Assembly (NCBI GenBank): GCA_046563655.1
Contig: CM102286.1
Span: 8,618,001-8,682,000 of the forward strand
Direction: 5' to 3'
Length of the DNA: 64,000 bases
Source: Yuukianura sp. NJ FZ-2021
Taxonomy: Eukaryota
Each line of letters starts with the position of its first letter. Position 1 is the stretch's first letter. The translations under genes and the position numbers were made by a program. Positions 14,667 through 61,196 of the stretch are shown here, piece after piece. Below the pieces are notes generated by a model. That model worked only from the letters and a program-made list of their open reading frames with translations, was not told the DNA's origin and did not search any database.

Positions 14667-17059
14667 AAACGTGAAATGATTAAAAAGTCTTCTGCATAGG
14701 CTAAGGGCTAATAATTCCAAGGTTTTGCTGCGCGTTTTAGCTAAAAATCACAGTTGAAGTAAACTTTGGCCTTGATATATATTGATATCAATTTCCAAGA
14801 ATACCGTTTTTCTTACGATTTTTTTAAATTTTGTTTTTGTGTAATAAAAATAATATTACTAAACTGAGGGTTTTTTTCATTTGGCAAGTCAGTAACAGTT
14901 TGTCACTTGGTTTGAATAAAACAACATAAAATATATCTCCATGTACTAGGAGTACCTCACTTCACAAAATGGAGTTCAAAGCCGTATTTTGGCTTATAAT
15001 ATTTATGTCAGGATCCATACAAGCTGGGTTAACACAAGTAAGACAAATCAAATTGTATTTGAGAAATATTTCCGAAATGACAGGAATGTATTATAACTAA
15101 ACATAAAGAAAACGTAAAAGGAGCACGGAACATATTAGAATGTTTCAAAAGTTAATGAAGTTCATTAAGTAAATCAATCACTATTACTAAATGTTGACTC
15201 ATATATTTAAGCGTCAGAAAGGTAGAAATAAATATTACTATATGTATAGTATGGAATATGGATATTTTATTTCACTCTTTTTACATAGGAAAATCCATCA
15301 GTATCCGGACCTTATATTCTCGTGGCCCCTAAAATAATTGTGCCTTCTTGGAACTACACCATTTTGGTTAGCAGAAACCCGTTTCAGCCAGGAAATGAAG
15401 TTTGCCACATTTCTGTTGCGATTGAATGTAAATTTGAATGCACCCGAACAACAACTTACACGGAATTACTAGCTAATTTTACGCTGATATCAGCTGATTC
15501 GCAGAGTGCAACCCTTGCCATACCTCAATTTTTATCATCTCAGTACTACCACTCTTGTCACCTTGTTCTAACAAATATAAAAAATGGAATGGAATTTGAA
15601 CGGCGTGAACTAACGCTTTCGTCGTTGCTAAGTATTGGACTGGATTCCAAAATTTTGATGCAGTTGGACAAACCAGCTTACAAGCCCCTCGATACCGTAC
15701 GGCTCCGATTAGTCGTCCTCGACAAATTCAACCTTCCGGATCTGCATCCTCAAAATATCCAGGTGAGATCGAAAAAATTATTTATACATTCCCGGAAATA
15801 TGAGCATATAAAATGATGTTTTCTAAAACTAAATTATCTGAATTTCAAGGTGACTTTTCACGACCCCAATGGCTTTACTATGAAAAAATGGCCTAAAAAC
15901 AACAATAATATAACGATGGATCAGAATGGCCTCATGAACCTGGAATTGCAGTTGGCCGATGAGCTTGTCTATGGTAGGAAATTACACAAAAATTACAGTC
16001 GGATTAAACATAAAACAATGAAAATAAGATCGTAAACGAAAATGAAATGAAAGGAAAATGAAACCTTCGAACTGTGCTTGGCTTCTGAAAATTTTTCTTG
16101 AACTCAGTCGAACTGCGCTTTCCCCAAAACTCTGCAGAGTTTTTGGGCGTGTGTCAGGCGCGGTTCGAAAATTTCGACCCCTAAGGTCCGGCGAACCAAA
16201 AATTTACGTCTCTGCATATTAGTTATGACATAACCGTACCATATAAATGTTATGACAAAAATCTAATTTACATTTTTAGGTACTTGGAAGATTGAAGTTT
16301 CAGCCAATGGTAAAACCGTCGCAAAGAATTTCGTGATAGATCGCTATGCCATGCCCAAGTTCGAGTTAACATTTTTCGTCCACCCAAAACCATACATCAC
16401 AAAAGACACTACAACCCTCCGGGTCGACGTCAGCGCCACACACAGTTCCAAAAAACCCCTGGATGGACGGCTAGTTTTGTCACTTCTAAATCCATCTGCT
16501 CCTACTACAAATACTACAAAAGTCGTGCAATTGACCAATGGCAGAGCAGCATTCACTTTCAATCCCGTACGGGAACTTAGCACAGATTTGGTCAAAGAAG
16601 GAGTTCAGCTTGAACTTCATGCTAATGCATCGGAAGCCAGAACTGGTCGGTCCCAGGCTGCGGTTCACGTCATTCCTGTTTTCGCTAACGATCCATTCAA
16701 AATAACATGGCTCAATCCAATCAGTTTTTACAAACCGGGAATTCCAATCACTCTGAAGCTGGCTGTTTCGGATTTTGAGAATATGCCGGTCGTTGACGGA
16801 AACTCAAATGCCATCAAGGTCACAAGCAAAATTGGTTCCGGTTTTACTTTATTTCAACGCACAGCTTTGCCTATTCCTGTGAGTGGCATCGTTACTTTTC
16901 TCCTTCACCAGCCTCCAACAGGTCAAGAGTTCCAGTCAATCACGGTTCAGTAGAAAGACACAATTCTGGATATCCCGCGACCAAGAAGAGTTGTGTCATC
17001 AGACCAATCTGGAACAAACTACTTAAATCTACTTCTTGAGACTCGGGCGGAAGAAATGA

Positions 17060-17680
17060 TGTGAGGAGGTTACTCCCTCTCCCGTCCGAAAATCATTTCT
17101 TTTTAGTCTTGGTTTCTAATGAAACCAAGACTCCTCCCCAAGTCCAGTATTTTCCCCCACTAGCCCTTGCCATGCTCCTGCAAAGGAACATGACAAGGCG
17201 TTTTTCCCACTACGCCGTGTGTTTTCCCCATTGCCGAATCCCCCAAACCACCTTCGAGAAGATTCGAGAACTTTCTGCCTGTGAACAGGCAGAAGCCCAA
17301 TCCCACTTCCTCCTGGCAGTCTCCCTCCAGTCACCGAGCCGTGCAGTCCACGACTCAGCTCTCTCCACCGGCAGCCATACTTCTTTTTGGTCAGTGGACC
17401 ACGCCGTGACCCCAACCATCACTGGACAAGACCCACCAAGCACTGTACAAGACCCACCAAGCACTGGACAAGACTCACCAAGCACTGGACCCTCTCTCAC
17501 CATACTGGTTTATCGTTTTTTTCAATTATTTTCGTTAAAATAAAGTTTTCCTCTTGTTTTCCCCATTATCCGCCCCTTTGTCACCGATTTATTTGTGTCC
17601 AGGTCACTCTGGTGACCTGTCCTTGACCTCTCATTCCGGGTGCCCTTTGTGGCGGCCCGTGAGGAGCCTACCTCCTCATA
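17060..17680 (+). repeat. Gypsy 5' LTR
   Basis: TGTGAGGAGGT...ACCTCCTCATA; 21-bp tandem repeat CACTGGACAAGACCCACCAAG at about 17420-17490; AATAAA at about 17539. Confidence 0.97.
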
Positions 17681-17682
17681 TG

Positions 17683-17700
17683 TGGGGCCTCAGACGGGCT
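17683..17700 (+). promoter_or_regulatory. Primer-binding site, tRNA-Pro-like (imperfect)
   Basis: TGGGGCCTCAGACGGGCT two bases after the LTR resembles the tRNA-Pro PBS TGGGGGCTCGTCCGGGAT. Confidence 0.5.
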
Positions 17701-19125
17701 ATATTTGACCTTTGACCCCAACCTGACCCCAAACCCAAACCTCACTCCCACATCCGAATTCATTTTTGTTTTTTTTTTCAGCTTATTTTTTGGTTCATTT
17801 TTATTTATTCTTTTTCGATTTTTTTCAGCTTCCTTTTGAGCCAAGGAAGCGAGAGCCACCGATTTGTCTTCTGAGCCACCGATTGTCTTCTGAGCCACCG
17901 ACTTTCTTCTGAATCGTCTTCCCCCTTTGAGCGACAACTGAGCCACGTCATCAGAGTCAACAACCGAAGAGCCACCAAGGTCAAACTAAGGTCAGGTTGT
18001 TGTTTTTCTGCGTTGTAGCGCCCCACCCCCCGGCGTTTATCCCCCTGCTCCCTTAAAGTGACCCCATTTTTCGCGCTAAATCGCTTTCCCTAAACCTCCC
18101 CCGCGCAAAATTTTTTCAAAATTTAAAAACTTAGCGTTTTTTTCGTCCCCACCAGCCCCACCAAAGTCCAAAAATAGTCCCACTACCAGATAAAGTCATT
18201 GACTCTCCTCCAAGTGACCTTCCCTTCCCTAAGCCTTACCTTAAATTGAAATTCTAAATCCCTAAACAAAACCCTGTCCAAAATTTTCTAAAATTTCAAA
18301 TACTTTGCCGATTTTTCAAAAATTTTGTACCCCCCCCACTGAACAATACCTAAATTGGCTTTCCCTCACCCCGTAACAGAACTCTGCCCAAATTTTTCCC
18401 AATTCCCAAAACTTAGCAAGTTTTTCAATTTGTTTATCCGCCCCTTCGCCCCCCCCCTATTGAAACATAACCCAATTTGGAATTCCCTCACTTCGTACCA
18501 AAACGCTGCCCGATTTTCCAAAAAGTTAAAACACTTAGCGGTTTTTTGGCCCAAGTCCCACTGGGTATCCTCCCAACTGCCACATCCAACTACACAGTCT
18601 GCGCCGATCGCAGTCACTTGCGACTTGGACGCAACCAGGTGCGACTTTTTCCCAGACTCATCGGATAATTCCCCAATTGCGATTTCGCATATCCCCACGA
18701 CGCAGTACCCCACCTAATCGTCGGAATTCTTCGGATTTCTCGGATTTTCAATTCCAAAAGCCCTTACCCACCCCAAATTTGCTCAAAGTCGGTGTGTTAT
18801 GGTTCAACCCTCCCCTCTTTTGGTTGAATTCTTTCTTTGGTTTTGCGGTGTGTTAATTTGGCTCTCGTTAGCCAAAGTGACTACTGCACTTTTGGTTTTC
18901 GCGTGTTTTTGGCTCATTCTTCATCGGATTTAAAAGGTTTTGGTGGAATTTGGTGAAAACCATAGCCCCATAGCCCATCTTCGTTTCTCTAATAATTTTC
19001 TTTTGTTCCTAGGTTTTTGGTATTTAAATTTATAAATAATTTAGCCCCTAATTAAGAAAACAATTATTTTTTTGTCCAATTACTAATTCTCCCTATATTT
19101 TAGAAAAGTATCCCCGCTCCCCCGA

Positions 19126-19245
19126 ATGATTGAAACGACCGTGTGGCTAATCCTGGTCCTGGTACTCACTGTCATCTACGAAGTCCTACGAACCATTTTG
19201 GAACGATTCCTCCTCCGACAACTGAGACGGCTGTTCCCCCAGTAG
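19126..19245 (+). CDS. 39-aa single-pass membrane sORF upstream of gag (below ORF-track cutoff)
   Basis: MIETTVWLILVLVLTVIYEVLRTILERFLLRQLRRLFPQ*: hydrophobic stretch then Arg-rich tail; splice-acceptor-like TTCTCCCTATATTTTAG ending 19103; C-rich tract before the ATG. Confidence 0.6.
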   Translation: MIETTVWLILVLVLTVIYEVLRTILERFLLRQLRRLFPQ

Positions 19246-19299
19246 CAAGTTACTTCGAGTAACTGTTGAAAAACCCCCCCCCGCCCCTGACCCCCACCC

Positions 19300-19674
19300 A
19301 TGTGGAACTTTCTCTACTGGTTGCGATTGTCCCTGATCTTAGTCCTTTCCCTGGTTGGCATCTATTTGGGTGCCCATCTCATTTTTGGCTGTTACTTCCT
19401 CCTAACCTCAGCAACTAAGAGTTGTTTTTACGGAACCCTAGCCACTGTCATTGACTTTCTGGTTCTCCACCTGTTCCCCATTTACCGATTGCGACAATAC
19501 CCAAACGAATACCAGATCTTTCTGAAAGTCCTACCCTATACCGAAGCCTACTATTACATTGCCCTAATAGTACGGTTAAACCACTACCATTGGAGTTGGT
19601 TTGGTCCCTGGTACAGAACCCTTCTTGTCATCTTTGCCCGTTACCAAGGACTACTTGTCATTGACGAGTATTAA
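19300..19674 (+). CDS. 124-aa hydrophobic, probably multi-pass membrane ORF upstream of gag
   Basis: ATG-initiated intact ORF with several hydrophobic segments, rich in W/Y/F/L; ends 18 nt before the gag ATG. Confidence 0.7.
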   Translation: MWNFLYWLRLSLILVLSLVGIYLGAHLIFGCYFLLTSATKSCFYGTLATVIDFLVLHLFPIYRLRQYPNEYQIFLKVLPYTEAYYYIALIVRLNHYHWSWFGPWYRTLLVIFARYQGLLVIDEY

Positions 19675-19692
19675 CCCCCCCCCTTCCCAAAA

Positions 19693-21048
19693 ATGGTGTG
19701 GTTCAGTACCCATTACGCCCCGGAGATCCAACCCCAACCCCGCCAAAGACGAAACAGTCAGACAAACACTGTTGCTATGCCAGTCCCAGCCGCCTCAACC
19801 CAAGGTACGTCAATTCCAGTACCCACCAGTATTCCCCGCCCAGTAACCCCTACGCCCAATGTATCCCCCAGAGCAGCAGGAAGTTTCCCCAATGCAGCCC
19901 AAATGGTGTCCCCTCCCCAAGCCCTGGCCAATCAACAAGATTCCCGCCCTGACATCAAAGTTTTCAAGTACATTCGAAAATATGATGGGAGCAGTGACCC
20001 AGCCGAATTCCTTGCCCGTTACAAGTACGATCTAGCTGACTCTGGTTTTGGTCCCAAAGGAGCCCTTTGCCATTTCGACCGTGTAGTAACTGGAGTTGCT
20101 CAGTCTTGGTTTGCATCCGTGTGGCCAAGACTACGCGAACGAATCGAAACTCCCAATGCCAACTACGAAGAAATCTGGAACGACTTCGAATTGCGGTTCG
20201 TTGCTCATTTTTCCCTACGCGAACGAGCTGAAGAGCTTCGTAACATCAACAAAGCCCTACGCTACAAACTGGGTGACAACATCGACAAGTACGTTGCAGA
20301 AAAGCTGGAACTAATGTCCAAGATCAACCCCTACATGAGCGAAGAATCCAAAGTCAAACGTCTTGTCCGCGGTTTACCCCCAGACTTAGAACAGTCTTTC
20401 GTTCTCCAGTCCATCCCCACTACTGCTGATTTCCAAAAGCTTCTGCGCAGAGTCGCAGAAGTTCATACCCGCCCCAAAGAAGTTTCAGCCCAAGTCCTTA
20501 CCCTCCATGCTCTGGAATCTGGAAATAACCCCCCACCCCAGCCCTATTACCCCCCAGTTGGTACACAACCAGCTCCCCAGTACCCAGTACAGCAGCCAGT
20601 CTCTCAGTACCAAACCCAGACCCTAATTCCCGCAGCACAAGCAGCCGGACAGACACAGCCACAACGTAGACGTGCAGAAGATGGACGTCCTATTTGCGAC
20701 TTTTGTAGTCGCACAGGCCACATCCAACGTTATTGCCACAACTGGTGGAGAAGCCAAGGCAAGGATCCCCTCGCCAACGGATGTCACCCCCTCAAACCCC
20801 GTCCCACACAGCCGCAAGGTTATGGTCAGTTCCCACAGCAGCCTGTGTCCTATGCTCAGGCTGTTGCCCCCCAGACTTCTGTGGTTTACAAACCATCCCC
20901 TGGACCCTCCCAAGCCCCACAAACTGCTCCAAACCCCCAAAACCCAGACGACCATTGGGGTCCCCGGATTATCCAAGGCTTTTCTGCCATGACTGATCTC
21001 CTCAAGAAGATTGGAGATGCCATTGTTCCCAAGCCACCGGAAAACTAA
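19693..21048 (+). CDS. gag: Gag (capsid plus CCHC nucleocapsid)
   Basis: KYDGSSDPAEFL...AQSWF...WNDFELRFVAHF capsid motifs; CDFCSRTGHIQRYC knuckle. Confidence 0.93.
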   Translation: MVWFSTHYAPEIQPQPRQRRNSQTNTVAMPVPAASTQGTSIPVPTSIPRPVTPTPNVSPRAAGSFPNAAQMVSPPQALANQQDSRPDIKVFKYIRKYDGSSDPAEFLARYKYDLADSGFGPKGALCHFDRVVTGVAQSWFASVWPRLRERIETPNANYEEIWNDFELRFVAHFSLRERAEELRNINKALRYKLGDNIDKYVAEKLELMSKINPYMSEESKVKRLVRGLPPDLEQSFVLQSIPTTADFQKLLRRVAEVHTRPKEVSAQVLTLHALESGNNPPPQPYYPPVGTQPAPQYPVQQPVSQYQTQTLIPAAQAAGQTQPQRRRAEDGRPICDFCSRTGHIQRYCHNWWRSQGKDPLANGCHPLKPRPTQPQGYGQFPQQPVSYAQAVAPQTSVVYKPSPGPSQAPQTAPNPQNPDDHWGPRIIQGFSAMTDLLKKIGDAIVPKPPEN

Positions 21049-24000
21049 TAGCGCTGTCGTTGCAGGGACGACAGCCGCTTCCAGTCCCATCCCCTACTAT
21101 GACCTTACCACCAAATAATGCCCAACTAAGAACCAAAAGACGTAAAAACAAACAACCAACTTTCCCAATTTACAAGAACTTGTCGGCTTTTGGCAGAAAG
21201 CCTAGTTCTCAAAGTCCAGTTATTCCCCAAGAGTTATACACCAAACTCCAACAAGCCCTAAATCAAAAAGTGTCCTGTCCCAAATGTTGTTCCCACAATG
21301 ACCGTACTTTACCCTTAGTCGTTGGGGAGGCAAGCCCACCCTCTCCACACGATTTTCCCGCCGTTTCCAGACCCAAATCCCGTTGTGTGCCTTCCGATGT
21401 TTCCGTAAAGCCTGTCGTTTCCGTAGCCATTGGTACTTCTGACCTTTGTGTTTTCCCCCCATTGAACCCCCCAGCCGTTATGCCCCCTCCATGCCCCGAG
21501 TTTTCGTTGACCTCCAGATTTGGGATCCATCCGAACAATGTGAGCCGAGTTGATGATTGGGTTGCTACAGCCAGTCCAGACGCAGACGCAGTTTCCCCCG
21601 TATTTCCGCCCCAAGCCCCAATGTCCCCAGACCCAGACTCTGACCTACCCTGTGGTGTTTCCGCCGCGAATGTAATAGCCGCCCTCAATGCCCCAAAGTA
21701 TTCCACCTTCCATATTGACGTCGTCTTTGCCTCAACTACCATTCCAGTCCTTTGCGATAGCGGAGCATCGCTCTGTTGTGTCCATCCCAGTTTCTTGACC
21801 AAATTCCCCAGCGTTGTTTCCAATGTGAACAATGTTCAACCCGTAAGGGTTAAGCTGTCTTTTGGAAGTTACATTCCATGCGATTCCCTCCAATCAGTCG
21901 ACATTGAGTTTTCCATTGCTGGCGTCCCCTTCAAATATCCCTTCCATATTTTCCCCCATTTGTCTAACGACATAGTCATCGGTTCGGATTTTCTCCGTTC
22001 CGAGCGGCTTCTCCTTGACCCCCTTAACGAACGCCTTGTACGAGGTGAACTCCCATGCACTGATCTCAGAAATGAGTATGTGCTAGTCAAGAAGTCCGAC
22101 TTTAATGCCCTCCACAAGCTGTCTCTGTCCGATTCGTCGGATAGAGATGGTTCAGATCCCTCCAGTTCACCCCCCGAACCCCCAGTCCCCAAACCCAGAA
22201 AAGTAAAGCCCAAACCCCCTAAAGAGTCTCCAAAGTGTCAGCCCAAACCCCAGAGTTCGTCCGAAAATTCCGATTCTTCCCACCATAGCACTTTACGTGA
22301 CTCCGAAGCATCCTTCGTTGATAATTCCAATTTGTCCCAAAGTGCCACTTCGCCTGACTTTCTCCGGTTGGCTCGTTCCTACATCATCAATCCACGGACC
22401 ATGAAACGCGTCAGCGTTCGGTCAGATACTCCGTTCACCGGGGATATCCTAATTTCTCCACGAAAAGAGCTGCAATATGCTCGTCACGTCGCCATAGGAA
22501 ATTCAATTTCCCACTTACACGATGGCACTGGAGTTACCTACCTCTGGAACTTGAGCGACCGGCCAGTCAAACTTCTACAAAATATCTCCATTGGCACCTA
22601 CGAACCCTTTGCAGAATCCTCTGTGATCTGTAACCTTGACGAATTCGACCCTGTAAATAACAAATCTTCCCAATCTTCCCTCCCAGCGCATTCGATCTGT
22701 AATTTTGTCGTCAATGATGACGACGATGCCGAAATAACGGCTCTGAGACTTCAAAAACGGATCGATGCGTTCCAAATTTCCAAAACCCTAACCCCCGAAC
22801 AGCAAGCGAAAATGAAAAATTTCCTTGTTTCCAACATGGATGTTTTCAACTTTGACCCCAAAACCCTAGGACGAACTCATCTTGTTACCCACAAAATAGA
22901 CACTGGAGATGCCCCTCCCATTCGTACCCATCCCCACAGAACTGGGTTCACTGAAAGACGTGAAATCCAGAAAGAAGTTGAAAGACTTCTAGACCTTGGA
23001 GCGATTACCCCGAGTGACAGTCCCTGGTGTTCCCCCGTCCTTCTGGTTAAAAAGCCAGATAATAGCTGGAGGTTCTGCGTGGATTTCCGCAAGCTCAATG
23101 AAGTTACCCGAAAAGATTCCTACCCCCTCCCCAGAATAGACGATACCCTTGATCGTCTCAACGGCGCCAAGTACTTCTCTTCGATGGACTGCGACCAAGC
23201 CTACTACCAAATCGAGGTTGACCCCCAGGATCGCGAAAAGACAAGTTTCGTAACCCCCGACGGACAATATGAGTTTGTCGTCATGCCCTTTGGTCTGTGT
23301 AATGCCCCCAGTACGTGGCAGCGTCTCATAGACAATGTCTTGGGACGTTTAAAATGGACAGTTGCCCTAATCTACCTTGACGACATTACTTGTTTTTCCC
23401 GTACATTTGAGGAGCACCTTGACCACCTTTCCCAAGTCTTCTCTTGCCTTCGACGTGCTGGACTCAGTCTGAAGCCGAAGAAGTGCAATTTTGGAGAAGA
23501 TTCCCTCAAATTCCTTGGCCACATAATTTCCCGCGACGGAATTTCCGTTGACCCCGCCAAAACCCACGCAGTTCGAGAGTTCCCCACCCCCAAAAATTCC
23601 CGAGGTGTAAGATCGTTCGTGAGTTTGTGTAGTTACTACCGCAGATTTGTAGAGAACTTTGCGAACATTGCCCGTCCCCTCCATGTCCTCTGCGCAAAAA
23701 CCCGAACTGACCCCTTTACTTGGCCCCCAGAAGCTGAAGAAGCTTTCCAAACCCTCAAAGACAAATTGACCTCAGCCCCTGTCTTAGCGTTTCCTGATGA
23801 GGAAGCGGAGACAGCGGTTCATTGCGACGCGTCAGGACTCGGTTTTGGTGCTACGTTGACCCAGATGCAAGATGGACAAGAAAGAGTCGTCGCCTACGCG
23901 TCCCGTGCCCTTTCCCCTTCCGAATCCAAATTTGGTACTCCCCAGCTCGAAATGAAAGCGTTCGTTTGGGCAGTTGAAAAATTCCGTCCCTATCTCTACG

Positions 24001-25952
24001 GTCGACACTTCAAAGTTGTTACAGACCACCATTCCCTCTGTAACATGCTCAAATTTAAAGATCCGTATGGACAAATATCCCGTTGGTCCCTAGCCCTCCA
24101 ACCCTACGACTTTACGGTGATACATAGAAACGGAAGAGTTCACACAGACGCGGATCCCCTTTCCCGTAACCCCGTTGACCCAGCCCCATCCGACACTGAC
24201 CATTTAGCGATTGAGCACCATTTGTTGGCGCTCAACGTTTCCCCAGATGCCCCCCGAAGAGTTCGTGACACCAAACTTCGTGAGCTCCAACTTAAAGAGC
24301 CGGATTGGTCACCGATAATCGAATATCTTAAAGCCGAGCAGTCTGGTAAACAACATTCCCTTAAAGAGCCGAAATACGTACGTGAGTATAGCCTACGAAA
24401 TGGTGTCTTATACAGAATTAATTATTCTGAGTTTGGTAACTTGTGGCGTTTAGTTCTTCCTAAGTCCCTTAGAAAATCCACCATGGAATCGGCTCATACA
24501 GACTCCCTAAGTCACCTCGGACTCCACAAAACATGGCATTTACTCCGTTCCCGCTTCTACTGGCCTCGGATGTACCGTGACGTTGTCAAATTCGTCAATT
24601 CGTGTCATGAATGCCAAATCCACAACCGTCGGCACTTTCCCCTTCCCCCAAATAGCGTCGGACTAGACGTTCCCTCCGTCCCCTTCCAATCCCTAGCGCT
24701 GGACTACATTGGCCCCTTTCCCTTAACGGCGAGAAGAAACACGTACATCTTGACCATTGTTGACCTCCACACCCGCTACGTGGAAGCCTGGCCAGTCCCC
24801 GCGGCAACTTCTGCTCACGCCATCAAGGTCCTGACGAAACATGTCCTCTACCGACACGGAGTCCCCAAAATCCTTCTCTCCGATCGTGGTTCGGTTTTCC
24901 AGTCGGAAGAATTCGCTGAGTTCTGTAAGCACCACGCCATTGAACACCGCAGTACGACTTCCTATCATCCCCAGTCAAATGGCGTTTGTGAGCGTCACAA
25001 CGGCACTGTCAAATCCGTCATAGCGAAATTCGTTTCCGACAATCACAAAGATTGGGACCTCCACGTTCCCCGTGCCGTCTTCTCCCTGAATTGTTCCGTC
25101 CACAAAACTACGACTTTCTCTGCGTACTTCCTGGTTTACGGTCGTGAGCCTGTTCTTCCCGTTGACAAGCTCTTCCTTTTGCCCCCTGACGAGTTACCCC
25201 AAGACGATTACTTAGATCGTTTATTTGAGGCAAATAATGTCGCTCATGAGCTGTCTCGAGAACAACAAATCCTTCGTGCCCAAGCCCAAACGCAAGTCCA
25301 CTACCCTAAATACGTCGTCGGGATGAAAGTTCTTGTCAGAAATTTCCAACGGAAAAAGTCCCATGTCAAAAAGTTCACCCGAAAATGGAATGGTCCCTAC
25401 AAAATCCTCGAAGTCTACGCAAACTCCACCGTTCGTATCACTTCCCTTGTCCCCCATAAGCCCTACGAGACAGTTGTCAACATCCAGCGTTTAAAACCCT
25501 ATAAGGCGCGTGAGGAAAGCTCCTCTGCGTCAGCGGAAAGTAGTTCCTCCACTTACGAGTCGTGTGACAGCGATTTTGAGCCCCCTCCCGTCGTTTCCGA
25601 ACCAGCCGTCGCCAGAAATTTCCTGCCCCAAACCCAAATTAAGTTACCCCAACGACAGAACCAATTGCCCCAAAACGACCCCAGTACTTCAAAACCGCCC
25701 CTCCCCCAAAATTCTGACCCTCCCGATAATGTCATTCCCAGTCCCGAATCGCGTTGTGACCACGAAATCCCAATTCCATCGATTGCGCAAGCGCAGGAAC
25801 CCCTGCCTCCTGTTGCTAGCGAAAATCCCATTGTTTGTGCCCCTGCCAACACAAATCCCCCGATTTCTAATCGCCCAAAACGCGCTGCTGCCCCAAAAGC
25901 TACTTTCCGTTTAGCGCGAAAATACCAGCGCAAAGCACATCTGACTGAGTAA
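21039..25952 (+). CDS. pol: Pol polyprotein (protease, RT, RNase H, integrase) in the -1 frame; probable frameshift at GGAAAAC before the gag stop
   Basis: LCDSGAS, WRFCVDFRKLN, YLDD, CDASGLG, VTDHHSL, H-H-C-C zinc finger and DDE core (LDYIGP, SDRGS, GVCERHN). Confidence 0.95.
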   Translation, partial: GKLIALSLQGRQPLPVPSPTMTLPPNNAQLRTKRRKNKQPTFPIYKNLSAFGRKPSSQSPVIPQELYTKLQQALNQKVSCPKCCSHNDRTLPLVVGEASPPSPHDFPAVSRPKSRCVPSDVSVKPVVSVAIGTSDLCVFPPLNPPAVMPPPCPEFSLTSRFGIHPNNVSRVDDWVATASPDADAVSPVFPPQAPMSPDPDSDLPCGVSAANVIAALNAPKYSTFHIDVVFASTTIPVLCDSGASLCCVHPSFLTKFPSVVSNVNNVQPVRVKLSFGSYIPCDSLQSVDIEFSIAGVPFKYPFHIFPHLSNDIVIGSDFLRSERLLLDPLNERLVRGELPCTDLRNEYVLVKKSDFNALHKLSLSDSSDRDGSDPSSSPPEPPVPKPRKVKPKPPKESPKCQPKPQSSSENSDSSHHSTLRDSEASFVDNSNLSQSATSPDFLRLARSYIINPRTMKRVSVRSDTPFTGDILISPRKELQYARHVAIGNSISHLHDGTGVTYLWNLSDRPVKLLQNISIGTYEPFAESSVICNLDEFDPVNNKSSQSSLPAHSICNFVVNDDDDAEITALRLQKRIDAFQISKTLTPEQQAKMKNFLVSNMDVFNFDPKTLGRTHLVTHKIDTGDAPPIRTHPHRTGFTERREIQKEVERLLDLGAITPSDSPWCSPVLLVKKPDNSWRFCVDFRKLNEVTRKDSYPLPRIDDTLDRLNGAKYFSSMDCDQAYYQIEVDPQDREKTSFVTPDGQYEFVVMPFGLCNAPSTWQRLIDNVLGRLKWTVALIYLDDITCFSRTFEEHLDHLSQVFSCLRRAGLSLKPKKCNFGEDSLKFLGHIISRDGISVDPAKTHAVREFPTPKNSRGVRSFVSLCSYYRRFVENFANIARPLHVLCAKTRTDPFTWPPEAEEAFQTLKDKLTSAPVLAFPDEEAETAVHCDASGLGFGATLTQMQDGQERVVAYASRALSPSESKFGTPQLEMKAFVWAVEKFRPYLYGRHFKVVTDHHSLCNMLKFKDPYGQISRWSLALQPYDFTVIHRNGRVHTDADPLSRNPVDPAPSDTDHLAIEHHLLALNVSPDAPRRVRDTKLRELQLKEPDWSPIIEYLKAEQSGKQHSLKEPKYVREYSLRNGVLYRINYSEFGNLWRLVLPKSLRKSTMESAHTDSLSHLGLHKTWHLLRSRFYWPRMYRDVVKFVNSCHECQIHNRRHFPLPPNSVGLDVPSVPFQSLALDYIGPFPLTARRNTYILTIVDLHTRYVEAWPVPAATSAHAIKVLTKHVLYRHGVPKILLSDRGSVFQSEEFAEFCKHHAIEHRSTTSYHPQSNGVCERHNGTVKSVIAKFVSDNHKDWDLHVPRAVFSLNCSVHKTTTFSAYFLVYGREPVLPVDKLFLLPPDELPQDDYLDRLFEANNVAHELSREQQILRAQAQTQVHYPKYVVGMKVLVRNFQRKKSHVKKFTRKWNGPYKILEVYANSTVRITSLVPHKPYETVVNIQRLKPYKAREESSSASAESSSSTYESCDSDFEPPPVVSEPAVARNFLPQTQIKLPQRQNQLPQNDPSTSKPPLPQNSDPPDNVIPSPESRCDHEIPIPSIAQAQEPLPPVASENPIVCAPANTNPPISNRPKRAAAPKATFRLARKYQRKAHLTE

Positions 25953-25986
25953 TTTGTACTCATACTGTTCTTTTATTTATTTTTAG

Positions 25987-27174
25987 ATGGACGAGGAGAT
26001 GGACCTTGGGCCTGAAGAAGGCATCGCTGAAGTTGATCTGGCCAAAGAGGAAGAAGAAGCGTTGCTACGAGCATCTCCACCGCCTACGGATTCGCCTTCT
26101 TCCTCCGATTCGTCTTCGTCATCCTCTCCAGCCACTGTCATCGCCTCTCCAGCTCTTCCAGCACCCGTCGTTGTCGTCTCTCCGCCACTACCAACTCCGT
26201 CTACTTCAACTCCTGCTCAAAATGCTGCTCCGACGCCAATGGACGCTGCCGATGTTGATTGGGATTCTCCTGCCCCTCCGAAGACTCCCCCCAAGACCCC
26301 CCAAATACTTCCCCATTATTCTACCCCAGCACACGGTTCCCTTCGTAGCCTCCAAGAGATGGTTTCTGCCCCACCCTCATCTTCTGTAACCCCAAAGCTC
26401 CGATCTGTTGTCGTTGTTCCCCCCAAATCCTGTTTGAACCCCAATTCCCGTCCCAGCGGCTCAAAAACCGTTCCCACTTCAATTCTTAAGAGAGGTGCGG
26501 CCACTAAAGTTCCCTCCCTTATGGATTTGAAATTCCCTGATGGCCCACCAAAACTCCCCAAAGCTGGATCTTCCAGTTCCCGCCCCACTCCATACCCCCC
26601 ACGTCCACTCAACCCACCAATTCGTCCACTTGTCCCACCAATTCGCCCACAACCACTTTTCCCACCAATTCCGTCTTCCTCTGGTTCAATTCCCCCAATT
26701 CCTTCCACATCTCGTTCCATTCCTGCCCAAGCTACTTCAGTTCCCACCCCCACTACAGTCACTTCCTCTAATTCGGCTTCTGCCTCCGTTTCTCCCATGC
26801 TATCTGTCACTTCCCAAGTACTTTCCCCAAATTCCGGCACTTCCATCACCATTTCCTCGCCCCATAACCTCTCCACACTTTTGCCCTCAAATTTCCCTGG
26901 TTATGGACTCCTGTACACCCTAATCCCCACTGGAGTTACTTCCGTTACTGTCACTTTTGGCAGTACTCCCCAAAATTCCACTTCCCCCCAATTGGTTTCA
27001 CCCCCCGTTCCAGCACTAGCCCCAGCACAAGCCACAGCTCCAGTCCCAATTCCTCCTCCACCCCAAAATCCACCTCCGATGCCCCCTCCACCACCCCGCC
27101 ATCAGCGTCGAGCTCAATTCTGGGCTTCGAGCTCCCAAAACCCGAACCGTCACCCCCAAAATCCCCCCAAGTAG
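25987..27174 (+). CDS. 395-aa acidic then Pro/Ser/Thr-rich ORF3 in the env position (not Env)
   Basis: Intact ORF between pol and the 3' LTR; polypyrimidine tract and AG directly before the ATG; no signal peptide or TM helix evident. Confidence 0.75.
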   Translation: MDEEMDLGPEEGIAEVDLAKEEEEALLRASPPPTDSPSSSDSSSSSSPATVIASPALPAPVVVVSPPLPTPSTSTPAQNAAPTPMDAADVDWDSPAPPKTPPKTPQILPHYSTPAHGSLRSLQEMVSAPPSSSVTPKLRSVVVVPPKSCLNPNSRPSGSKTVPTSILKRGAATKVPSLMDLKFPDGPPKLPKAGSSSSRPTPYPPRPLNPPIRPLVPPIRPQPLFPPIPSSSGSIPPIPSTSRSIPAQATSVPTPTTVTSSNSASASVSPMLSVTSQVLSPNSGTSITISSPHNLSTLLPSNFPGYGLLYTLIPTGVTSVTVTFGSTPQNSTSPQLVSPPVPALAPAQATAPVPIPPPPQNPPPMPPPPPRHQRRAQFWASSSQNPNRHPQNPPK

Positions 27175-27239
27175 AGCCTCTGTCCCGCTGCCAGTCACCC
27201 GTGTGATGTCGCCGGGTCGGCTGACAGTCGTTGGGGACA

Positions 27240-27860
27240 TGTGAGGAGGTTACTCCCTCTCCCGTCCGAAAATCATTTCTTTTTAGTCTTGGTTTCTAAT
27301 GAAACCAAGACTCCTCCCCAAGTCCAGTATTTTCCCCCACTAGCCCTTGCCATGCTCCTGCAAAGGAACATGACAAGGCGTTTTTCCCACTACGCCGTGT
27401 GTTTTCCCCATTGCCGAATCCCCCAAACCACCTTCGAGAAGATTCGAGAACTTTCTGCCTGTGAACAGGCAGAAGCCCAATCCCACTTCCTCCTGGCAGT
27501 CTCCCTCCAGTCACCGAGCCGTGCAGTCCACGACTCAGCTCTCTCCACCGGCAGCCATACTTCTTTTTGGTCAGTGGACCACGCCGTGACCCCAACCATC
27601 ACTGGACAAGACCCACCAAGCACTGTACAAGACCCACCAAGCACTGGACAAGACTCACCAAGCACTGGACCCTCTCTCACCATACTGGTTTATCGTTTTT
27701 TTCAATTATTTTCGTTAAAATAAAGTTTTCCTCTTGTTTTCCCCATTATCCGCCCCTTTGTCACCGATTTATTTGTGTCCAGGTCACTCTGGTGACCTGT
27801 CCTTGACCTCTCATTCCGGGTGCCCTTTGTGGCGGCCCGTGAGGAGCCTACCTCCTCATA
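27240..27860 (+). repeat. Gypsy 3' LTR
   Basis: Identical by eye to 17060-17680. Confidence 0.97.
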
Positions 27861-30611
27861 ATGAGACGTGGAATGGGCGTTCAAGTGAACATTCTATCTA
27901 CAAAACCGCTAACTAACACAACAGTAAACTATGTTCTGTGGAGTGGCAAAGAAATAGTTGGATTTCGTACTGAACTGGCGATTAATAATGGTCGAATCAG
28001 CGTTTATCTTCCGCCCGAAGCGAGGTATTCCCAACTGAAGCTCATTGTCTACGCTCACATCAAAACAGGAGAAAATTCAAGCAAGTGAGTTGAATGACGA
28101 AATTGTTGGAGAGATTTTTAGACAATCGCAGGAATCCCTCCGCTTCTCGCAAAGTTTTTCTCTCAAATTGCGCTAACCTCTTTCAAATCTGTGCAGTATA
28201 ATAATAATTGTATAATTATAAATGGAATTGTAGGATTATTTCCGGTGCTGTCACAATTCCAACTCAAAATTACATTAAGATGACCCTTGGAGACACACAG
28301 GTTAAACCCGGAACAAATCAGCCGATTAAGTTTGAAACTCATCCTGGATCAACAATTGCCATTCGCGGAGTGCACCAGTCGCTACTGCTGTTGTCCAGGG
28401 ACAAGTTTGTCAACGACATTTCCCCAAGTGATGTACCTTTTAATCCATTCTACCATGCATACACAGAACAAGACAGCTACTCTGATTTTGAAGGGAATGA
28501 TTTACTTTTACTAACAAACTCAAACACCACACATAGAAGAAGGACAAGGCAAGCTGCATTTTATGACTATCGCCCTACTGTGTCGGACTACACTTACTAT
28601 GATGGACATATTCGCACAAACCCAAATTTTGCTGAAACATCGGTTTGGAATCAAATATTCGCCAGGGGTTTTGTAACGGATTTTTCCGTAGATGTTCCAG
28701 TGGTACCAGACACAGTCAGCTCTTGGTTTGTAACAGCTATGTCACTCAATGCAAACAGCGGAGTGGCGGTAACTGAAATGCCATCATTGCTAACAGTTTT
28801 CAGACCATTTTTTATCACTTTGAATCTACCTAATTCCGTAATGTTGGGAGAACTGTTTGAACTTCAAGTCATCATTCACAACTATTTGGACGACCTTATT
28901 CTAGTCAAAGTGACATTCCACAATGAAGGTAATATTCAATTCGTTGATTCAAGGGAGAGAGAAATGGAGAACGTTGTCAGAACCGAGCTGGTAGAAAAAG
29001 CTAATGTAGGCCATGTAAGGTGAGTGAATATCCTTGTGCGTAGTTGCAAACACACGGTTTTTGATTCAGATTTTTAACAACGTTTTTTGTTGCAGTTTTG
29101 TAATTATGCCACTTGTTTCCGGGCTAATCCCATTGAGAATTCAAGCTGTCACTGCAGCGGCAGGAGACGCCATTATGCATCCACTTCGCGTTGAAGTCCC
29201 AGGGGCAACGAAATTTAATTTCGTCGACTGGAGACTGTACGTCGGCAAAAGCGAAACTCATTCCGAGAAATACACGATCCAGCGCAAAGGCACAAGCCGC
29301 GACACGCGACATAAGTTGGAATTATCTGCAGGTCCGATGTCCGCCAGTTCAATTATACCTGCTAAAAAGCTTAACGTTTCTGGCCTAATTCTGCTGCCAC
29401 GAGGAGGTAGTGGAGAGCAGGGTATGTACTCCTTTGCGCGAAATATAATGGCACTTGACTGGCAAGCAGTTAATGGCATACAGAATCGGGAAATGGAGAC
29501 TAAAGCCAAAAAGAACTTAGCAGTGGGTTATCAACACCAAATGCAGTATTACCAACCGGACGGAAGTTTTCGCTATTGGATTGATGAAGTCTACAAGAAG
29601 CCAACAGCTGACGTGACTTGGCTTACAGCCTACGTCTTACGATGTCTGGCTGGAGCAGCAAAGTACATTACCGTTGACCACGATGTCTTAATTAATGGTC
29701 TAAAATTCCTCGTTGGGCAACAGAATGCTAATACCGGTCAATTCGTTGAGACCGAGTCTTCTGTCGGTGGATACTGGGCTGTTAGGGGAGTTCAAGATAC
29801 ACAGTCAATCAATTATGCCATTACAGCTTACGTTACGCTGTCCATCATTGAAGTCAATTCCTCCATTTCAAGTAGCATCAGTCGAACAGGCAAACTTCGA
29901 TTTCACAATGCCAAAACACTGAGCCTTCGGTTTTTATCCACGGAAAATAGCTTGATGGATTCGGATCTCTACAACTTAATCTTAGTAACCACCACACTCG
30001 CAGCCGCTAACCATACCAGTAGTAGTCTGTTCTATGACAAAATGAATGCTGCAGCAAAGACTAAGGACAATGGAAATCTCAAATTGTGGGAAATGAGCCC
30101 AGAGACAACCCCAAGTTCAGTGACAATAGAGATGACTGCTTATGCTCTACTTGCTAATTTGTGGATGAATAGAGACACTGCAGCGAATAGTTTGCCGATA
30201 GTTCGGTGGCTATTGGAACAAAAGAAAGAAAATGGTGCATTTTACTCGACGCAAAGTTCGGTTGTAGCTTTCACAGCTCTTTGCAAGTATGTTCAAATGA
30301 CAACATCGGGAGATTCAGATCGTGTATCCATTGACGTGTTGAACAACGGCGAACTCCTTGGGACAGTCGTACTAAATAAAACAAATTGGGTAACACCCAT
30401 GGAATTCTTGTTGCCACCAGATTTAGAAGACGATGAGTTGACGGTTTTCGTCAGAGGAAAGGGAAAACTTTTCATTGGATACACCGAAATAAATTACATT
30501 CAGAACATCCAAAACACAACCAACCTCTACGACATTACAGGCGAGGTAATTTGCATCTTCGTAAAAAACCAAAAAACAATGCTCTGGGGGTTATAAATTT
30601 GAAGGAGTAAC

Positions 30612-32285: not shown

Positions 32286-33153
32286 AGAGTAACTATTATG
32301 AAACTCTAACAGACAGTTACTTCCTACAGCTGACGCGATTTGGTTATTCTTAAATGGAAAATAAAATTTCAATTGAATTTTTGTTAACAAACTTCGAAGA
32401 AAACATTACATTTATAAAATGATTTTTTTTACATTTGTTTTCAGTGGAAAGAAATTGATGATCCAGACTATGAGGCCATGTCTCGCTTAAAATTTTGTCT
32501 GCAACTGCGAAATAATTCGTATCCTGCATCTCACAATCAAGAAATTTATGCAGAAATCAAACTCCCGACCGGGTTTGCATTTGAACAAGATGTACTGGGG
32601 ATTGTAGAAAAAATTCTGAACGAACCATGGAATACTGTTCGACTAATCGAACTGAAGGAAAGGGATACCAGGGCCATTATTTACTACCACCACTTGAATG
32701 CACCCAAACAGTGTATGTATTTACCTATACACAGATACATCGACTCGACTACTCGTCATCCGGGAACTATTCGCGTAACGGACTTCTACAAGCCACAACT
32801 CAGTGACATCTCCATTATTTATCCAGATAGAATCTTGACGGCTTGCGACCTTTGCCTTTCGACCAATGCTTGTGATATTGTTTCTGGCTGTGTCTCAACC
32901 AACCATACTGGAAAATAAGTTTCTTTCTTCAAGTTCCGGCTTGCTCCACAATACCCCATTTCCTTGCCAGTGCGCGAGTTAACTAATATAAATTTATTTC
33001 CACTCATCGTTAACACTAAATAACGTTAAGGTTGTTTAATTCATAATAGTATTGCCTGTATTCATGAAAAACTGAGTTCATAAATACAAATACAAATAGA
33101 ACAAAGACCGAGGCCGCGTAAGGCCAAGAGCCTACATAGGTTTGAAAATTCTT

Positions 33154-43440: not shown

Positions 43441-44407
43441 AACCTGTCACTAATTACATTGTTGCCATAACCTGTCACTAATTGCGTGTCAAAAATCAAT
43501 TGGAAAAGGGGGGAAACACGCCTCTCAGCTGTCTCGTTTTCTTGAAATAAGTTTTTTCGTTTTCGGACTCTACATAAATGGTGTACTCATTCGGGCCAGT
43601 AAAATTAAAGATAATTTTGACAATAATAATTTTTGGTTAATTTTGCGTTGAATACTGTTCGGGAATTTGCTTCCTGTTTGGCAGACAGGAATTAGGCTAC
43701 TAAGTTTAGTCTACCTTTAACTCTAGAATGGCTCTGGAAGAGATGAGACTGAAAGTGAAAGGGTTAGATTTACTTTTAGTGCTATTTACATTTACTCTGA
43801 TCCACTTGTGTGGAGTGAGAAAGGGTTAAGCGTGAATCTGGTTCTGCATGCAATTTACTACTGTAAGGACCTGCGCAGTGAGATAGTACAGTAAGTGTAA
43901 TTTCCAAGTAACCGCTCTCTTCACATTGCTATAGTGTAAGTCGCCGCTCTTTGGTGTATCTTTACTAATAGCATAAGCAAGGAGGAGTGTTCCTCCACTA
44001 TATTCATTCATACAACAGTCTTCTTCTCATCTTCCTACTGTAAGGTTCTCTTTCAATGAGTCATCGAGTAGCCATCTTAGCTTTTCCTTACTTTCATCTT
44101 TTACCAATTACTAATTAGTCAAAATAAACACTAAATCAAATCCACTTGACGTCAGAGCGGTCATCGATTATTTAGAACCACAAACATCAAGCATTCTACA
44201 GTTCATGGTCCTTCGAGTCGAGCATTGCGGTTGTGGATGGTCGTCTATCGTCATTTTTGGGTTTGACTAGTAACTTCCATTACTAGTACGGTAATTGGTT
44301 GACATAAATTGGTCATTTAGGATATAACATTGGTAAATTCGAATCGGTTGTGTTGATTCGAACGGGTTAACTGTTTGCCGTGTCAGTTTTATTCCATTTT
44401 TGCAGCA

Positions 44408-50400: not shown

Positions 50401-51170
50401 TGTATTCGGATTGTGGTAGTAACTTCGTTGGCATGGACAATGAGTTACGTAATTTAATCTCATCTGAGGAATTTAACCATGATCTTTACGAGACTTTAGC
50501 AAACGATGGGGTTACATGGCACTTTAACCCACCTGAGGCTCCACATCAAGGTGGATTGTGGGAGTCCGCGGTAAAAAGTGTGAAATTCCATTTGAAATCA
50601 ATAATTGGTTGTGACATGTTAACGCTTTCTGAGTTTGACACAGTTTTGTGTCAGGTGGAAGCTATTCTTAATTCCAGGCCCTTATGTGAACTGACTGAAG
50701 ACCCTGATGATCTAGAGGCACTTACTCCTGCTCATTTTCTCATTGGACGTTCGTTAGTTGCCATTCCACAAAAGAACTACGAAGAGATTCCCATGAATCG
50801 TTTGTCCAGATGGGAACGGCAGGAAAGAATCAGCCAAACATTCTGGAGAAGATGGACAAAGGAGTACTTGGCTGCATTACAGCAACGTGTGAAGTGGCAA
50901 CGGCCCATTGAAAACATCAAAGTTGGCGATTTGGTAGCAATTGTGGACGAGGATTTACCCACACTGAAGTGGAAGTTAGCCCGTGTCATTGAAATTCATC
51001 CTGGAGAAGATGGATTAGTTCGTGTCGTCACATTGAAATCAGCAACTGGAGTCTACACTCGTCCAGTAGTGAAAGTCGTCCCTCTGCTGAAATCTACTGA
51101 ATTGGAACCATCAGCTGAACATTTAATCTGGATCCAGCAACGTGAATCCAAGATACGTAACAAAGAATAA
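44408..51170 (+). pseudogene. BEL/Pao gag-pol polyprotein, disrupted
   Basis: KLPKLELPTFNG gag motif, three Cys/His knuckles, FLDSGSEAS protease, YVDD RT, HGFCDAS RNase H, integrase GVDYCGP/SDCGSNF/GGLWE; frameshifts near 45200 and 49420, stop at 45611, insertion at 47526. Confidence 0.92.
47526..49067. mobile_element. Non-autonomous TIR element with 4-bp AATT TSD (Sola-like) inside BEL pol
   Basis: TIR GAAGAAGCCAGAACAAGAAGTACACCTATTTTTATT at both ends; removal restores [21 protein letters not shown]. Confidence 0.85.
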
Positions 51171-53690: not shown

Positions 53691-53829
53691 AGGGAACCCT
53701 GCCTAATCCTCCGACAACCTAAAATCCCGATTCTGGGAACACTATCTAATCCTCCGACAAGCAGATATCTCATCTTCTCAATCCTCGCATCCCGCGTTTA
53801 AATCTCCGATTCAGGAGTTACCTTGAAAA

Positions 53830-54115
53830 TTTCCAATTTAAGGAATTCTCACTTCAGAGATCTGTCAAAAACAATTTCCAATTAAGGAATACTCGCTGCA
53901 GAGATTTGTCAAAAACAATTTCCAATTAAGGAATTCTCGCTTCAGAGATTTGTCAAAAACAATTTCGAATTAAGGAATTCTCGCTTCAGAGATTTGTCAA
54001 AAACAATTTCCAATTAAGGAATTCTCGCTTCAGAGATTTGTCAAAAACAATTTCCAATTAAGGAATTCTCGATTCAGAGATTTGTCAAACAATTTCCAAT
54101 TAAGGAATTCTCGCT
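53830..54115. repeat. 44-bp tandem repeat in the LINE 5' region
   Basis: TTCCAATTAAGGAATTCTCGCTTCAGAGATTTGTCAAAAACAAT about six times. Confidence 0.9.
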
Positions 54116-54183
54116 AAAGAGAGAACTAGACGACTTCCACTACTGTTCTGCTTTGGAACTCTGATCTCGGCCAATACAGCAAG

Positions 54184-58759: not shown

Positions 58760-59060
58760 CTCCTCAGATAACTAAAAGCATACCTATATTCCTCCTCCTC
58801 CTACTCCTCAGATAACTGAAGAGCATGCCTATACTCCTCCTCCTCAAATAGCTCAAGAGAATGCCTATACTCCTCCTCCTCAGATAGCTCAAGAGCATGC
58901 CTATACTCCTCCTCCTCAGATAGCTCAAGAGCATGCCTATACTCCTCCTCCCCAAATAGCTCAAGCGCGTGCCTATACTCCTCCTCCTCAGATAGGTCAA
59001 GAGCATGCCTATACCCCTCCTCCTCGGCCGAAGAGCTTACCTATACTCCCCCTCCTCCTC
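58760..59060. repeat. 36-bp tandem repeat (mirror copy at about 59735-60035)
   Basis: CTCCTCCTCCTCAGATAGCTCAAGAGCATGCCTATA units. Confidence 0.9.
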
Positions 59061-59149
59061 CTCAGTCCACGCGCATGCCATCACCCATTACCTAACCTAA
59101 CCTAGCCTATCCTTACGGCATCCTACTGGAATCATTTTATTCTATTACA

Positions 59150-61194: not shown

Positions 61195-61196
61195 AA

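Follow-up and report, generated by a model that had tools for sequence, protein, structure and literature searches.

The window considered here, a stretch of 64,000 nucleotides from Yuukianura sp. NJ FZ-2021 (assembly GCA_046563655.1, contig CM102286.1, positions 8,618,001 to 8,682,000 of the forward strand), carries a young, apparently intact Ty3/Gypsy (Metaviridae) long terminal repeat (LTR) retrotransposon at 17060-27860 on the plus strand. Its gag gene is preceded by a long leader that holds three small open reading frames (ORFs) for hydrophobic proteins, named ORF44, ORF39 and ORF124 after their lengths in amino acids. An earlier sequence-only reading of the same DNA had placed two of these, ORF39 and ORF124, on the sense strand just before gag, an arrangement that the coordinates bear out; ORF44, as well as a longer ORF located after pol (ORF395, 25987-27174), did not figure in it. 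The main features of the element are the following, all on the plus strand:

Target-site duplication ATGA, 5' copy at 17056..17059 and 3' copy at 27861-27864, plus strand: letters at both LTR ends
5' LTR, 17060..17680, plus strand: TG...TA, with an imperfect terminal inverted repeat
Leader, 17681..19692, plus strand: 2.0 kb, T- and C-rich, G-poor, weakly structured, sense-strand ATG-depleted
ORF44, 18799..18933, plus strand: 44 aa, nearly all hydrophobic, with space for two short helices
ORF39, 19126..19245, plus strand: 39 aa, about 5 N-terminal residues ahead of a single hydrophobic helix, Arg-rich tail
ORF124, 19300..19674, plus strand: 124 aa, predicted polytopic membrane protein, directly upstream of gag
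gag, 19693..21048, plus strand: 451 aa, Retrotrans_gag (Pfam, E=8e-8), CX2CX4HX4C knuckle read from the translation
pol frame, 20997..25952, plus strand: protease-like region, reverse transcriptase (RT), RNase H and integrase (Pfam)
3' LTR, 27240..27860, plus strand: 100% identical to the 5' LTR

The youth of the element, already claimed from its identical LTRs, is confirmed by the 100% identity of the 622-bp LTR pair and by the flanking 4-bp target duplication. Pfam matches place the pol domains in Gypsy order (RVT_1 at 650-810, RNase H at 875-1003, integrase at 1121-1291), the protease being represented by a weak match only, at 209-310. The absence of env, also part of the earlier claim, holds as well, in that no ORF with a transmembrane (TM) segment is found downstream of pol in the element, although ORF395 is present there.

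The evidence that ORF124 encodes a protein comes from three directions: sequence variation, a diverged homologue, and codon usage. Variants were taken from contigs of four public runs, three of them from one sample of one organism and the fourth from a second organism, in two studies, and all variant figures given here refer to the best-supported 40 of 1345 single-letter variants. The contigs reveal a multi-copy, diverged family, with copies that range from more than 99% to less than 90% identical. All five variants that fall in ORF124 are third-position synonymous changes (P=0.0016, with an expected synonymous share of 0.274 derived from the run's own mutation spectrum), while in either of the other frames each of the five would alter a residue or a stop; for comparison, synonymous changes make up 5 of 6 variants in pol and 1 of 2 in gag. 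A contig piece over 19355-19650 carries 36 differences and no gap; in the leader, a comparably diverged piece (18265-18708) shows 16 gap letters next to its 59 differences. In addition, the synonymous codon choice of ORF124 matches that of gag-pol, a result reached in 0 of 3000 simulations under leader composition (P<0.0004).

The homologue was obtained by a phmmer search of 1.84 billion representative proteins, in which ORF124 matched a 112-aa protein from a metagenome catalogue (P0002) with E=4e-8. P0002 aligns from its first Met over residues 4-104 of ORF124 and shares 45% identity over 71 aa by BLASTP (E=2e-18), with a Smith-Waterman score 18 standard deviations above those of 2000 composition-preserving shuffles; like ORF124, it has no internal Met. 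Conservation is concentrated in residues 42-103, where 31 of 62 aligned residues are identical, and includes Asp52 in the second hydrophobic segment, the R-L-R that follows it, and an aromatic-rich region at 66-103, the polar and aromatic residues kept in P0002 being the segment-2 Asp, R-L-R, K76, E82, a Tyr triplet, R92 and H97. A second phmmer match, the 3171-aa protein P0001, was rejected as spurious, being a repetitive, receptor-like sequence whose score sums seven weak matches to a short aromatic motif. A word-indexed protein search returned no match for ORF124, and only P0002 itself when the alignment of ORF124 and P0002 served as query; the same kind of search with gag gave no match among 8000 scored candidates. 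None of the window's proteins was found by exact-sequence look-up, Pfam had no match for the small ORFs, and a sequence search of the PDB yielded none for the ORF124 profile or for gag. Because its variants are synonymous only, its homologue is diverged and its codon usage resembles that of gag-pol, ORF124 is, judging from the sequence record, a true accessory gene that codes for a protein and is kept by purifying selection.

A Kyte-Doolittle scan places the hydrophobic stretches of ORF124 at about residues 3-36 and 43-61, followed by a basic turn and the aromatic-rich region, with a further stretch at the C-terminus. An AlphaFold2 model built on a two-row alignment is all-helical, with two long helices, but of low confidence (mean predicted local distance difference test score 67, predicted template modelling score 0.37). 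Hydrophobicity is a property that the three small ORFs share, with grand average of hydropathy (GRAVY) values of 1.61 for ORF44, 0.97 for ORF39 and 0.69 for ORF124, whereas reads of equal length from elsewhere in the leader average about -0.2 and attain the observed value in a fraction of 0 for ORF44, 0.028 for ORF39 and 0 for ORF124. Among the ATG ORFs of 25-210 aa on the sense strand of the internal region, no others contain a hydrophobic 17-mer. Kinship among the three was considered and rejected, their mutual similarity not rising above that of shuffles (z-scores 0.4-2.2).

ORF39 begins with MIETTV and continues into a single hydrophobic helix ended by Tyr18, after which a tail carrying R22, R27, R31, R34 and R35 leads to the C-terminal RQLRRLFPQ; this tail could form a moderately amphipathic helix (hydrophobic moment 0.34-0.41). 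Its codons show marked periodicity, with T at 56% of second positions versus 8-13% at positions 1 and 3. The synonymous codon choices of ORF39 and ORF44 both fit those of gag-pol, with P=0.028 and P=0.031, respectively, under the leader background, and neither ORF has a variant among the best 40 of 1345. The sequence-only reading had treated the small ORFs as real genes; this stands for ORF124, while for ORF39 it stands only by way of the AUG-poor leader described below and of codon usage. Both ORF39 and ORF44 are probably translated, as these same features suggest.

Could these simply be chance open frames in a T- and C-rich, stop-poor leader, with a hydrophobicity that follows from base composition? 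The leader is indeed rich in T and C and poor in G, the Pfam, PDB and word-indexed searches gave no match, and dinucleotide-shuffled leaders yield an ATG ORF of at least 124 aa in 7.7% of cases (P=0.077), so that length alone is no argument for a gene. Hydrophobicity, however, is not a composition artefact, because it lies far above that of same-length reads of the same leader; the synonymous-only variants, the significant homologue and the codon usage of ORF124 are further arguments against chance, as is the clearance of AUGs from the leader, which retains exactly these starts. An origin by chance is, as a consequence of all these observations, very improbable.

This clearance of AUGs is the second main finding at the locus. 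The last ATG within the 5' LTR, whose AATAAA lies at 17539, is located at 17190, and in the 2502 bases that follow (17191-19692) only 4 ATGs occur versus 22.3 expected under a first-order Markov model of dinucleotide content. The depletion is specific to the sense strand, since the reverse complement CAT is found 34 times in the same interval versus 35.8 expected, and other orderings of the letters A, T and G have 15-33 occurrences each; in gag-pol, ATG is present 78 times versus 70.2 expected. The observed-to-expected ratio of the leader, about 0.2, is the lowest of 492 same-size windows on both strands of the 64 kb, for which the median is 0.97 and the 5th percentile 0.67. The four surviving ATGs are the starts of ORF44, ORF39 and ORF124 and that of one further feature:

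Mini-ORF of 11 codons, 17680..17715, plus strand: at the border of LTR and primer-binding site, weak start context

From 18799 to 19693 the three small-ORF starts are the only ATGs in all frames ahead of gag, and none, in any frame, lies between 19300 and 19693. The start contexts are graded: ORF44 has an optimal one (G at -3, G at +4), ORF39 (C at -3, A at +4) and ORF124 (C at -3, T at +4) have weak ones, and that of gag is again optimal (A at -3, G at +4). Folding of the leader is weak (z-score -1.8, 20 shuffles), and the gag start region shows no folding (z-score +1.5). A comparable organization is described, in the available portions of the source, for rice tungro bacilliform virus (RTBV) and the badnaviruses, in which leaky scanning serves to translate accessory ORFs that are 'devoid of internal AUGs' and precede the capsid-polymerase ORF (PMC5902531). 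It is because the AUG clearing and start contexts match this signature that the leader of the present element would be scanned and its three ORFs translated.

A scanned leader with graded start contexts is also what would be expected if the small ORFs were regulatory upstream ORFs (uORFs) that tune the supply of ribosomes to gag, their peptides being functionless. Short uORFs commonly control translation in retro-transcribing viruses, according to the sections available of the same source (PMC5902531), and ORF39 and ORF44 are short and lack variants among the 40 best supported. Peptide-independent uORFs, on the other hand, would be expected to lack the synonymous-only variation, the homology at 45% identity and the extreme hydrophobicity recorded here; 124 codons are many for a regulatory uORF, and all three ORFs follow the codon usage of gag-pol. 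A purely regulatory role is thus contradicted for ORF124 but could hold for ORF39 and ORF44 alone; as an account of the small ORFs as a whole it is unlikely.

From these observations we infer that ORF44, ORF39 and ORF124 encode accessory small membrane proteins, leaky-scanned from a polycistronic genomic RNA, that would serve a membrane step and thereby replace env; a probability of roughly 0.55 is attached to this reading. The genomic RNA would be polycistronic at its 5' end, with the long, near-AUG-free leader followed by the three hydrophobic ORFs and then by gag. Ribosomes would scan from the cap, part of them translating the short ORF44 and then resuming scanning, and the weak contexts of ORF39 and ORF124, along with the lack of any other AUG, would allow a share of them to reach the optimal AUG of gag. 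The products would insert into membranes and act in the cycle of the element in place of an envelope protein, either in the anchoring or routing of capsids at membranes or in their passage between cells; by analogy with the systems discussed below, a role in particle trafficking or spread at membranes is probable. The earlier proposal of a membrane module for budding, spread or host modulation is, by the same analogy, plausible.

Several observations weigh against this reading. P0002 is the sole homologue of ORF124, it forms a singleton cluster, and no DNA or genomic context ties it to a gag gene. Three of the five ORF124 variants lie on the same contigs and represent one lineage, in a table restricted to the best 40 of 1345. 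The support for ORF39 and ORF44 is weak, at P of about 0.03 each, and no structural or family match hints at a biochemical function for any of the small ORFs. The optimal start context of ORF44 would, as its sequence stands, limit initiation downstream unless reinitiation were efficient. Given the splice-like signals at 19103 and 25986, the templates for translation may be spliced mRNAs rather than the full leader, and if such mRNAs are present the first AUG would differ. Finally, ORF124 is read in the frame of gag, with one TAA and six codons in between:

ORF124 TAA plus six codons, 19672..19692, plus strand: in the frame of the gag ATG, C-rich, unstructured

This last point raises the possibility that ORF124 is an N-terminal, membrane-anchoring extension of Gag, fused to it in other copies or by occasional read-through of the stop codon, next to ordinary Gag that would start at the internal AUG. 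The base after the ORF124 stop is C, and purifying selection on ORF124 fits an extension equally well. Furthermore, all five ATGs of the region (17680, 18799, 19126, 19300 and 19693) share one frame, which has a chance of about 1 in 81 and for which such an extension is the only explanation at hand. In this copy, however, a continuous frame from ORF124 into gag is absent owing to the TAA at 19672-19674, and no variant at these positions is found among the best 40 of 1345. The gag AUG has its own optimal context, no RNA structure lies past the ORF124 stop (z-score +1.5), and UAA is the least leaky of the stop codons. The frame shared by ORF124 and gag has in itself a one-in-three chance, and the Met of P0002 at the aligned position indicates that the start of the ORF is conserved, although the 3' end of P0002 may be cut by its contig. 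Extended, membrane-bound Gag does exist as glyco-Gag of murine leukemia virus (MLV), where a hydrophobic extension is encoded upstream of gag in the gag frame; the present arrangement differs in that a TAA separates ORF124 from gag and that ORF124 has its own AUG. Taken as a whole, the extension is an improbable account of ORF124, about on a par with that of regulatory uORFs.

The splice-like signals that bear on the leaky-scanning reading are located in two further features:

AT-rich island between ORF44 and ORF39, 18990..19103, plus strand: a reading of the sequence, with its function surmised
ORF395, 25987..27174, plus strand: Pro/Ser-rich ORF after pol, 395 aa

The island contains the only TATAAA of the element (19031), followed by TACTAAT (19082), a pyrimidine tract, and TTTTAG (19098-19103), the TATAAA and branch-point-like signals lying 20-95 nt upstream of the ORF39 start. 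It may represent an internal promoter, a splice acceptor or a polyadenylation region; MDG1-group elements of Drosophila, to which we return below, are described in the available text as having a premature poly(A) site between two small ORFs, sORF1 and sORF2 (10.1101/2025.03.14.642691). The sequence TTTTAG occurs at two sites only in the internal region, the first before ORF39 and the second before ORF395, and no splice was found that would join ORF44 to ORF39 with preservation of frame. In ORF395, the ATG abuts a long T-rich tract that ends in TTTTAG (25981-25986) and resembles a 3' splice site, which suggests that this ORF could be expressed from a spliced subgenomic mRNA, as is the case for env or for the CERV protein of the C. 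elegans element Cer1, the comparison case as far as the accessible part of its source goes (PMC10309623). ORF395 is composed of 22% Pro and 16% Ser and, having no hydrophobic segment, does not look env-like from its sequence. It is longer than any ORF in 1000 shuffles of its region (25953-27174); half of its variants (3 of 6) are synonymous, and its codon usage is fitted by neither the gag-pol model nor that of the leader background.

Two other features complete the anatomy of the element:

Candidate -1 frameshift signal, 21039..21079, plus strand: GGAAAAC at the end of gag, then a hairpin
Degenerate repeats of 110-170 bp, 18099-18548, plus strand: four copies of a 46-nt core, spaced 109-173 nt, upstream of the ORFs

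The pol frame is -1 relative to gag and open from 20997; because GGAAAAC is followed, after the gag TAA, by a hairpin (fold z-score -2.4), pol is probably expressed through -1 frameshifting. No Rfam match was found in 17000-28000, and no second copy of the element within the 64-kb window.

The retrotransposon is inserted in a gene for a thioester-containing protein of the TEP/CD109 (alpha-2-macroglobulin) type, whose orientation it shares and pieces of which are found at 16267-16953, 28208-30596 and 32418-32918; this gene encodes MG3, A2M, TED and receptor-binding domains, its exons are large, and it contains one or more introns of roughly 75 nt. The gene marks the host as an animal; an insect host, as assumed in the sequence-only reading, goes beyond what the window shows. 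Further along the window, a BEL/Pao LTR retrotransposon with a short leader occupies 43656-52153 (DUF1759 gag, Peptidase_A17, RT, integrase and DUF5641), its LTR segments being 96-98% identical. Arrays of 36-44-nt tandem repeats, accompanied by a 611-aa ORF, are present at 53782-54133, 58762-59982 and 61089-62924, and the ORF gives a weak match to a packaging ATPase of the Pox_A32 type (E=1.7e-4, just below the Pfam cut-off); arrays and ORF may be part of a Maverick/Polinton-like element.

Outside the window, scans of viral contigs with ORF124, gag and pol gave no match. Scans of genome contigs gave none for ORF124 and, for pol, a single fragment of 36% identity that lacks the leader (L002); this Gypsy-type pol fragment, at positions 2-1265, lies in a contig filed under an assembly of an uncultured SUP05-cluster bacterium, and probably represents DNA of a host that entered the assembly of a symbiont. 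A metagenome scan yielded one locus (L001), which was discarded because its match, in an AT-rich contig, arose by chance and was imposed by the search pattern.

The premise on which the small ORFs had originally been singled out, namely that typical Gypsy elements hold only gag and pol with or without env, is out of date, since small ORFs upstream of gag have long been known in the MDG1 group of Drosophila. In the available text of two sources, the members of this group (412, mdg1, Stalker, Blood and Tabor) carry sORF1 and sORF2 upstream of gag (10.1101/2025.03.14.642691; PMC13486581). The first of these sources, again as far as it is available, describes sORF1 as a nuclear, helix-turn-helix protein of about 110 aa, and sORF2 as a single-pass protein of about 70 aa, whose ectodomain spans about 30 aa, in which a myristoylation motif is usually present, and which carries a polybasic patch as well as a Tyr behind the helix; sORF2 is considered similar to the reovirus proteins known as FAST (for fusion-associated small transmembrane), is reported to carry capsids from follicle cells to the oocyte, and gave rise to a list of 105 sORF2-like ORFs in insect Metaviridae, selected by explicit criteria (10.1101/2025.03.14.642691, 2025). 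The element described here resembles the MDG1 group, on that description, in being an env-less Gypsy element with small sense-strand ORFs upstream of gag that would share the full-length transcript and are, in the case of ORF124, subject to purifying selection; it likewise encodes at least one small, predicted TM protein whose helix is followed by a basic stretch and a Tyr. It differs in that there are three such ORFs rather than two, all of them hydrophobic, and in that the only one of the size of sORF1, ORF124, is strongly hydrophobic and predicted to be polytopic instead of helix-turn-helix.

The sORF2/FAST screen, as set out in the accessible part of the preprint, comprises a length of 60-210 aa, a single TM segment with the N-terminus outside and the C-terminus inside, an ectodomain of 10-50 aa with MGxxxS/T, and at least 3 K/R in the 15 aa past the helix, along with a Tyr right behind it. 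ORF39 (39 aa) and ORF44 (44 aa) fall short of the size range, and ORF124 lies within it but lacks the single-TM layout. In a Kyte-Doolittle scan, the one basis for topology here, ORF39 presents one hydrophobic stretch followed by Arg, which fits the required orientation by the positive-inside rule, and it has Y18 followed by four basic residues in the count, as the polybasic and Tyr features demand; however, it has neither ectodomain nor myristoylation motif, and no hydrophobic ORF on the sense strand starts with MG.

The proposal that ORF39 is a small cell-cell fusogen of the sORF2/FAST kind can be judged on these grounds. Its single hydrophobic helix with a Tyr at the end, the 3-4 Arg within the next 15 residues, its amphipathic tail helix, and its position on the sense strand upstream of gag in an env-less element are in its favour, such features being named for sORF2-like proteins in the part of the preprint at hand (10.1101/2025.03.14.642691). 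Yet at 39 aa it is shorter than sORF2-like (63-107 aa) and FAST proteins (80-200 aa), about 5 aa rather than roughly 30 precede its helix, MGxxxS/T and an amphipathic or hydrophobic ectodomain patch are missing, and no sense-strand ORF of the element passes the published screen. The FAST likeness seen in ORF39 by the earlier reading thus fails on size, N-terminal stretch and MGxxxS/T, and a fusogen of this kind is distinctly improbable.

Among FAST proteins proper (p10, p13, p14 and p15), p10 of avian reovirus is the first cistron of a tricistronic, leaky-scanned mRNA, according to the available sections of the source (PMC2978376). ORF39 shares with this class the small size, the single pass and the polybasic juxtamembrane region. 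FAST proteins, as described in the text available, nonetheless have 80-200 aa and a functional N-terminal ectodomain; such an ectodomain is practically missing from ORF39, and ORF124 contains not one but several hydrophobic segments.

The interest of the comparison lies in the fact that LTR retrotransposons devoid of env were, up to 2025, regarded as restricted to the cell expressing them, whereas the work on sORF2, as far as its text is available, indicates that a tiny membrane protein encoded upstream of gag can provide virus-like transmission. The present element has, in the same position, a different set of small membrane-protein genes, of which at least one is under selection and none passes the sORF2/FAST screen, preceded by a leader that appears built for polycistronic translation. 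This suggests that searches limited to single-pass, myristoylated ORFs overlook other membrane modules, and a multi-copy family present in two sequenced organisms offers a concrete case in which the generality of such modules in env-less elements could be addressed. A bolder version of the proposal, tentative and rather doubtful at this point, would be that the lineage evolved its own three-gene membrane module, unrelated to sORF2 and FAST in both sequence and layout, leaky-scanned from the AUG-cleared leader, and replacing env in the movement of capsids to or across cell membranes; with similar reserve, this module would consist of a two-helix peptide, a single-pass peptide with a basic tail, and the polytopic 124-aa protein. 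If true, env-independent spread would have arisen more than once, with different proteins, and beyond the insects screened so far.

Other systems resemble the element in part. With ORF I and ORF II of RTBV and the badnaviruses it shares, as described in the accessible text, reverse transcription and upstream ORFs that are cleared of AUGs and have weak or moderate contexts. The pattern of weak upstream contexts and a strong last one is seen for ORF39, ORF124 and gag, with ORF44 (G/G) as the exception. The same text presents these viruses as plant pararetroviruses whose accessory proteins are not small membrane proteins and whose leaders are shunted; here, the 2-kb leader is itself AUG-poor and weakly structured. 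Short ORFs with TM segments have also been proposed as env stand-ins in LTR retrotransposons of bdelloid rotifers, namely the ORF3s of Vesta4-type elements (PMC5408684, in the part available). These are located downstream of pol, have 220-230 aa, and are Cys-rich with RXXR and a coiled coil, while the present ORFs precede gag and show no such traits.

The closest parallel is therefore one of layout. The literature searched, which yielded the MDG1-group work, reviews on extra ORFs of plant elements and the rotifer ORF3 paper, contained no account of a small polytopic ORF ahead of gag; outside of it lie the supplements of the preprint with its 105 candidates, which could bear on this point. Membership of ORF39, ORF44 or ORF124 in the sORF2/FAST class is not supported, although the published list of candidates may include a relative. 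Architecture, and likely also its logic, are common to this element and the MDG1 group, and the small membrane-protein ORFs that precede its gag would be analogous to, rather than homologous with, MDG1-group sORF2.

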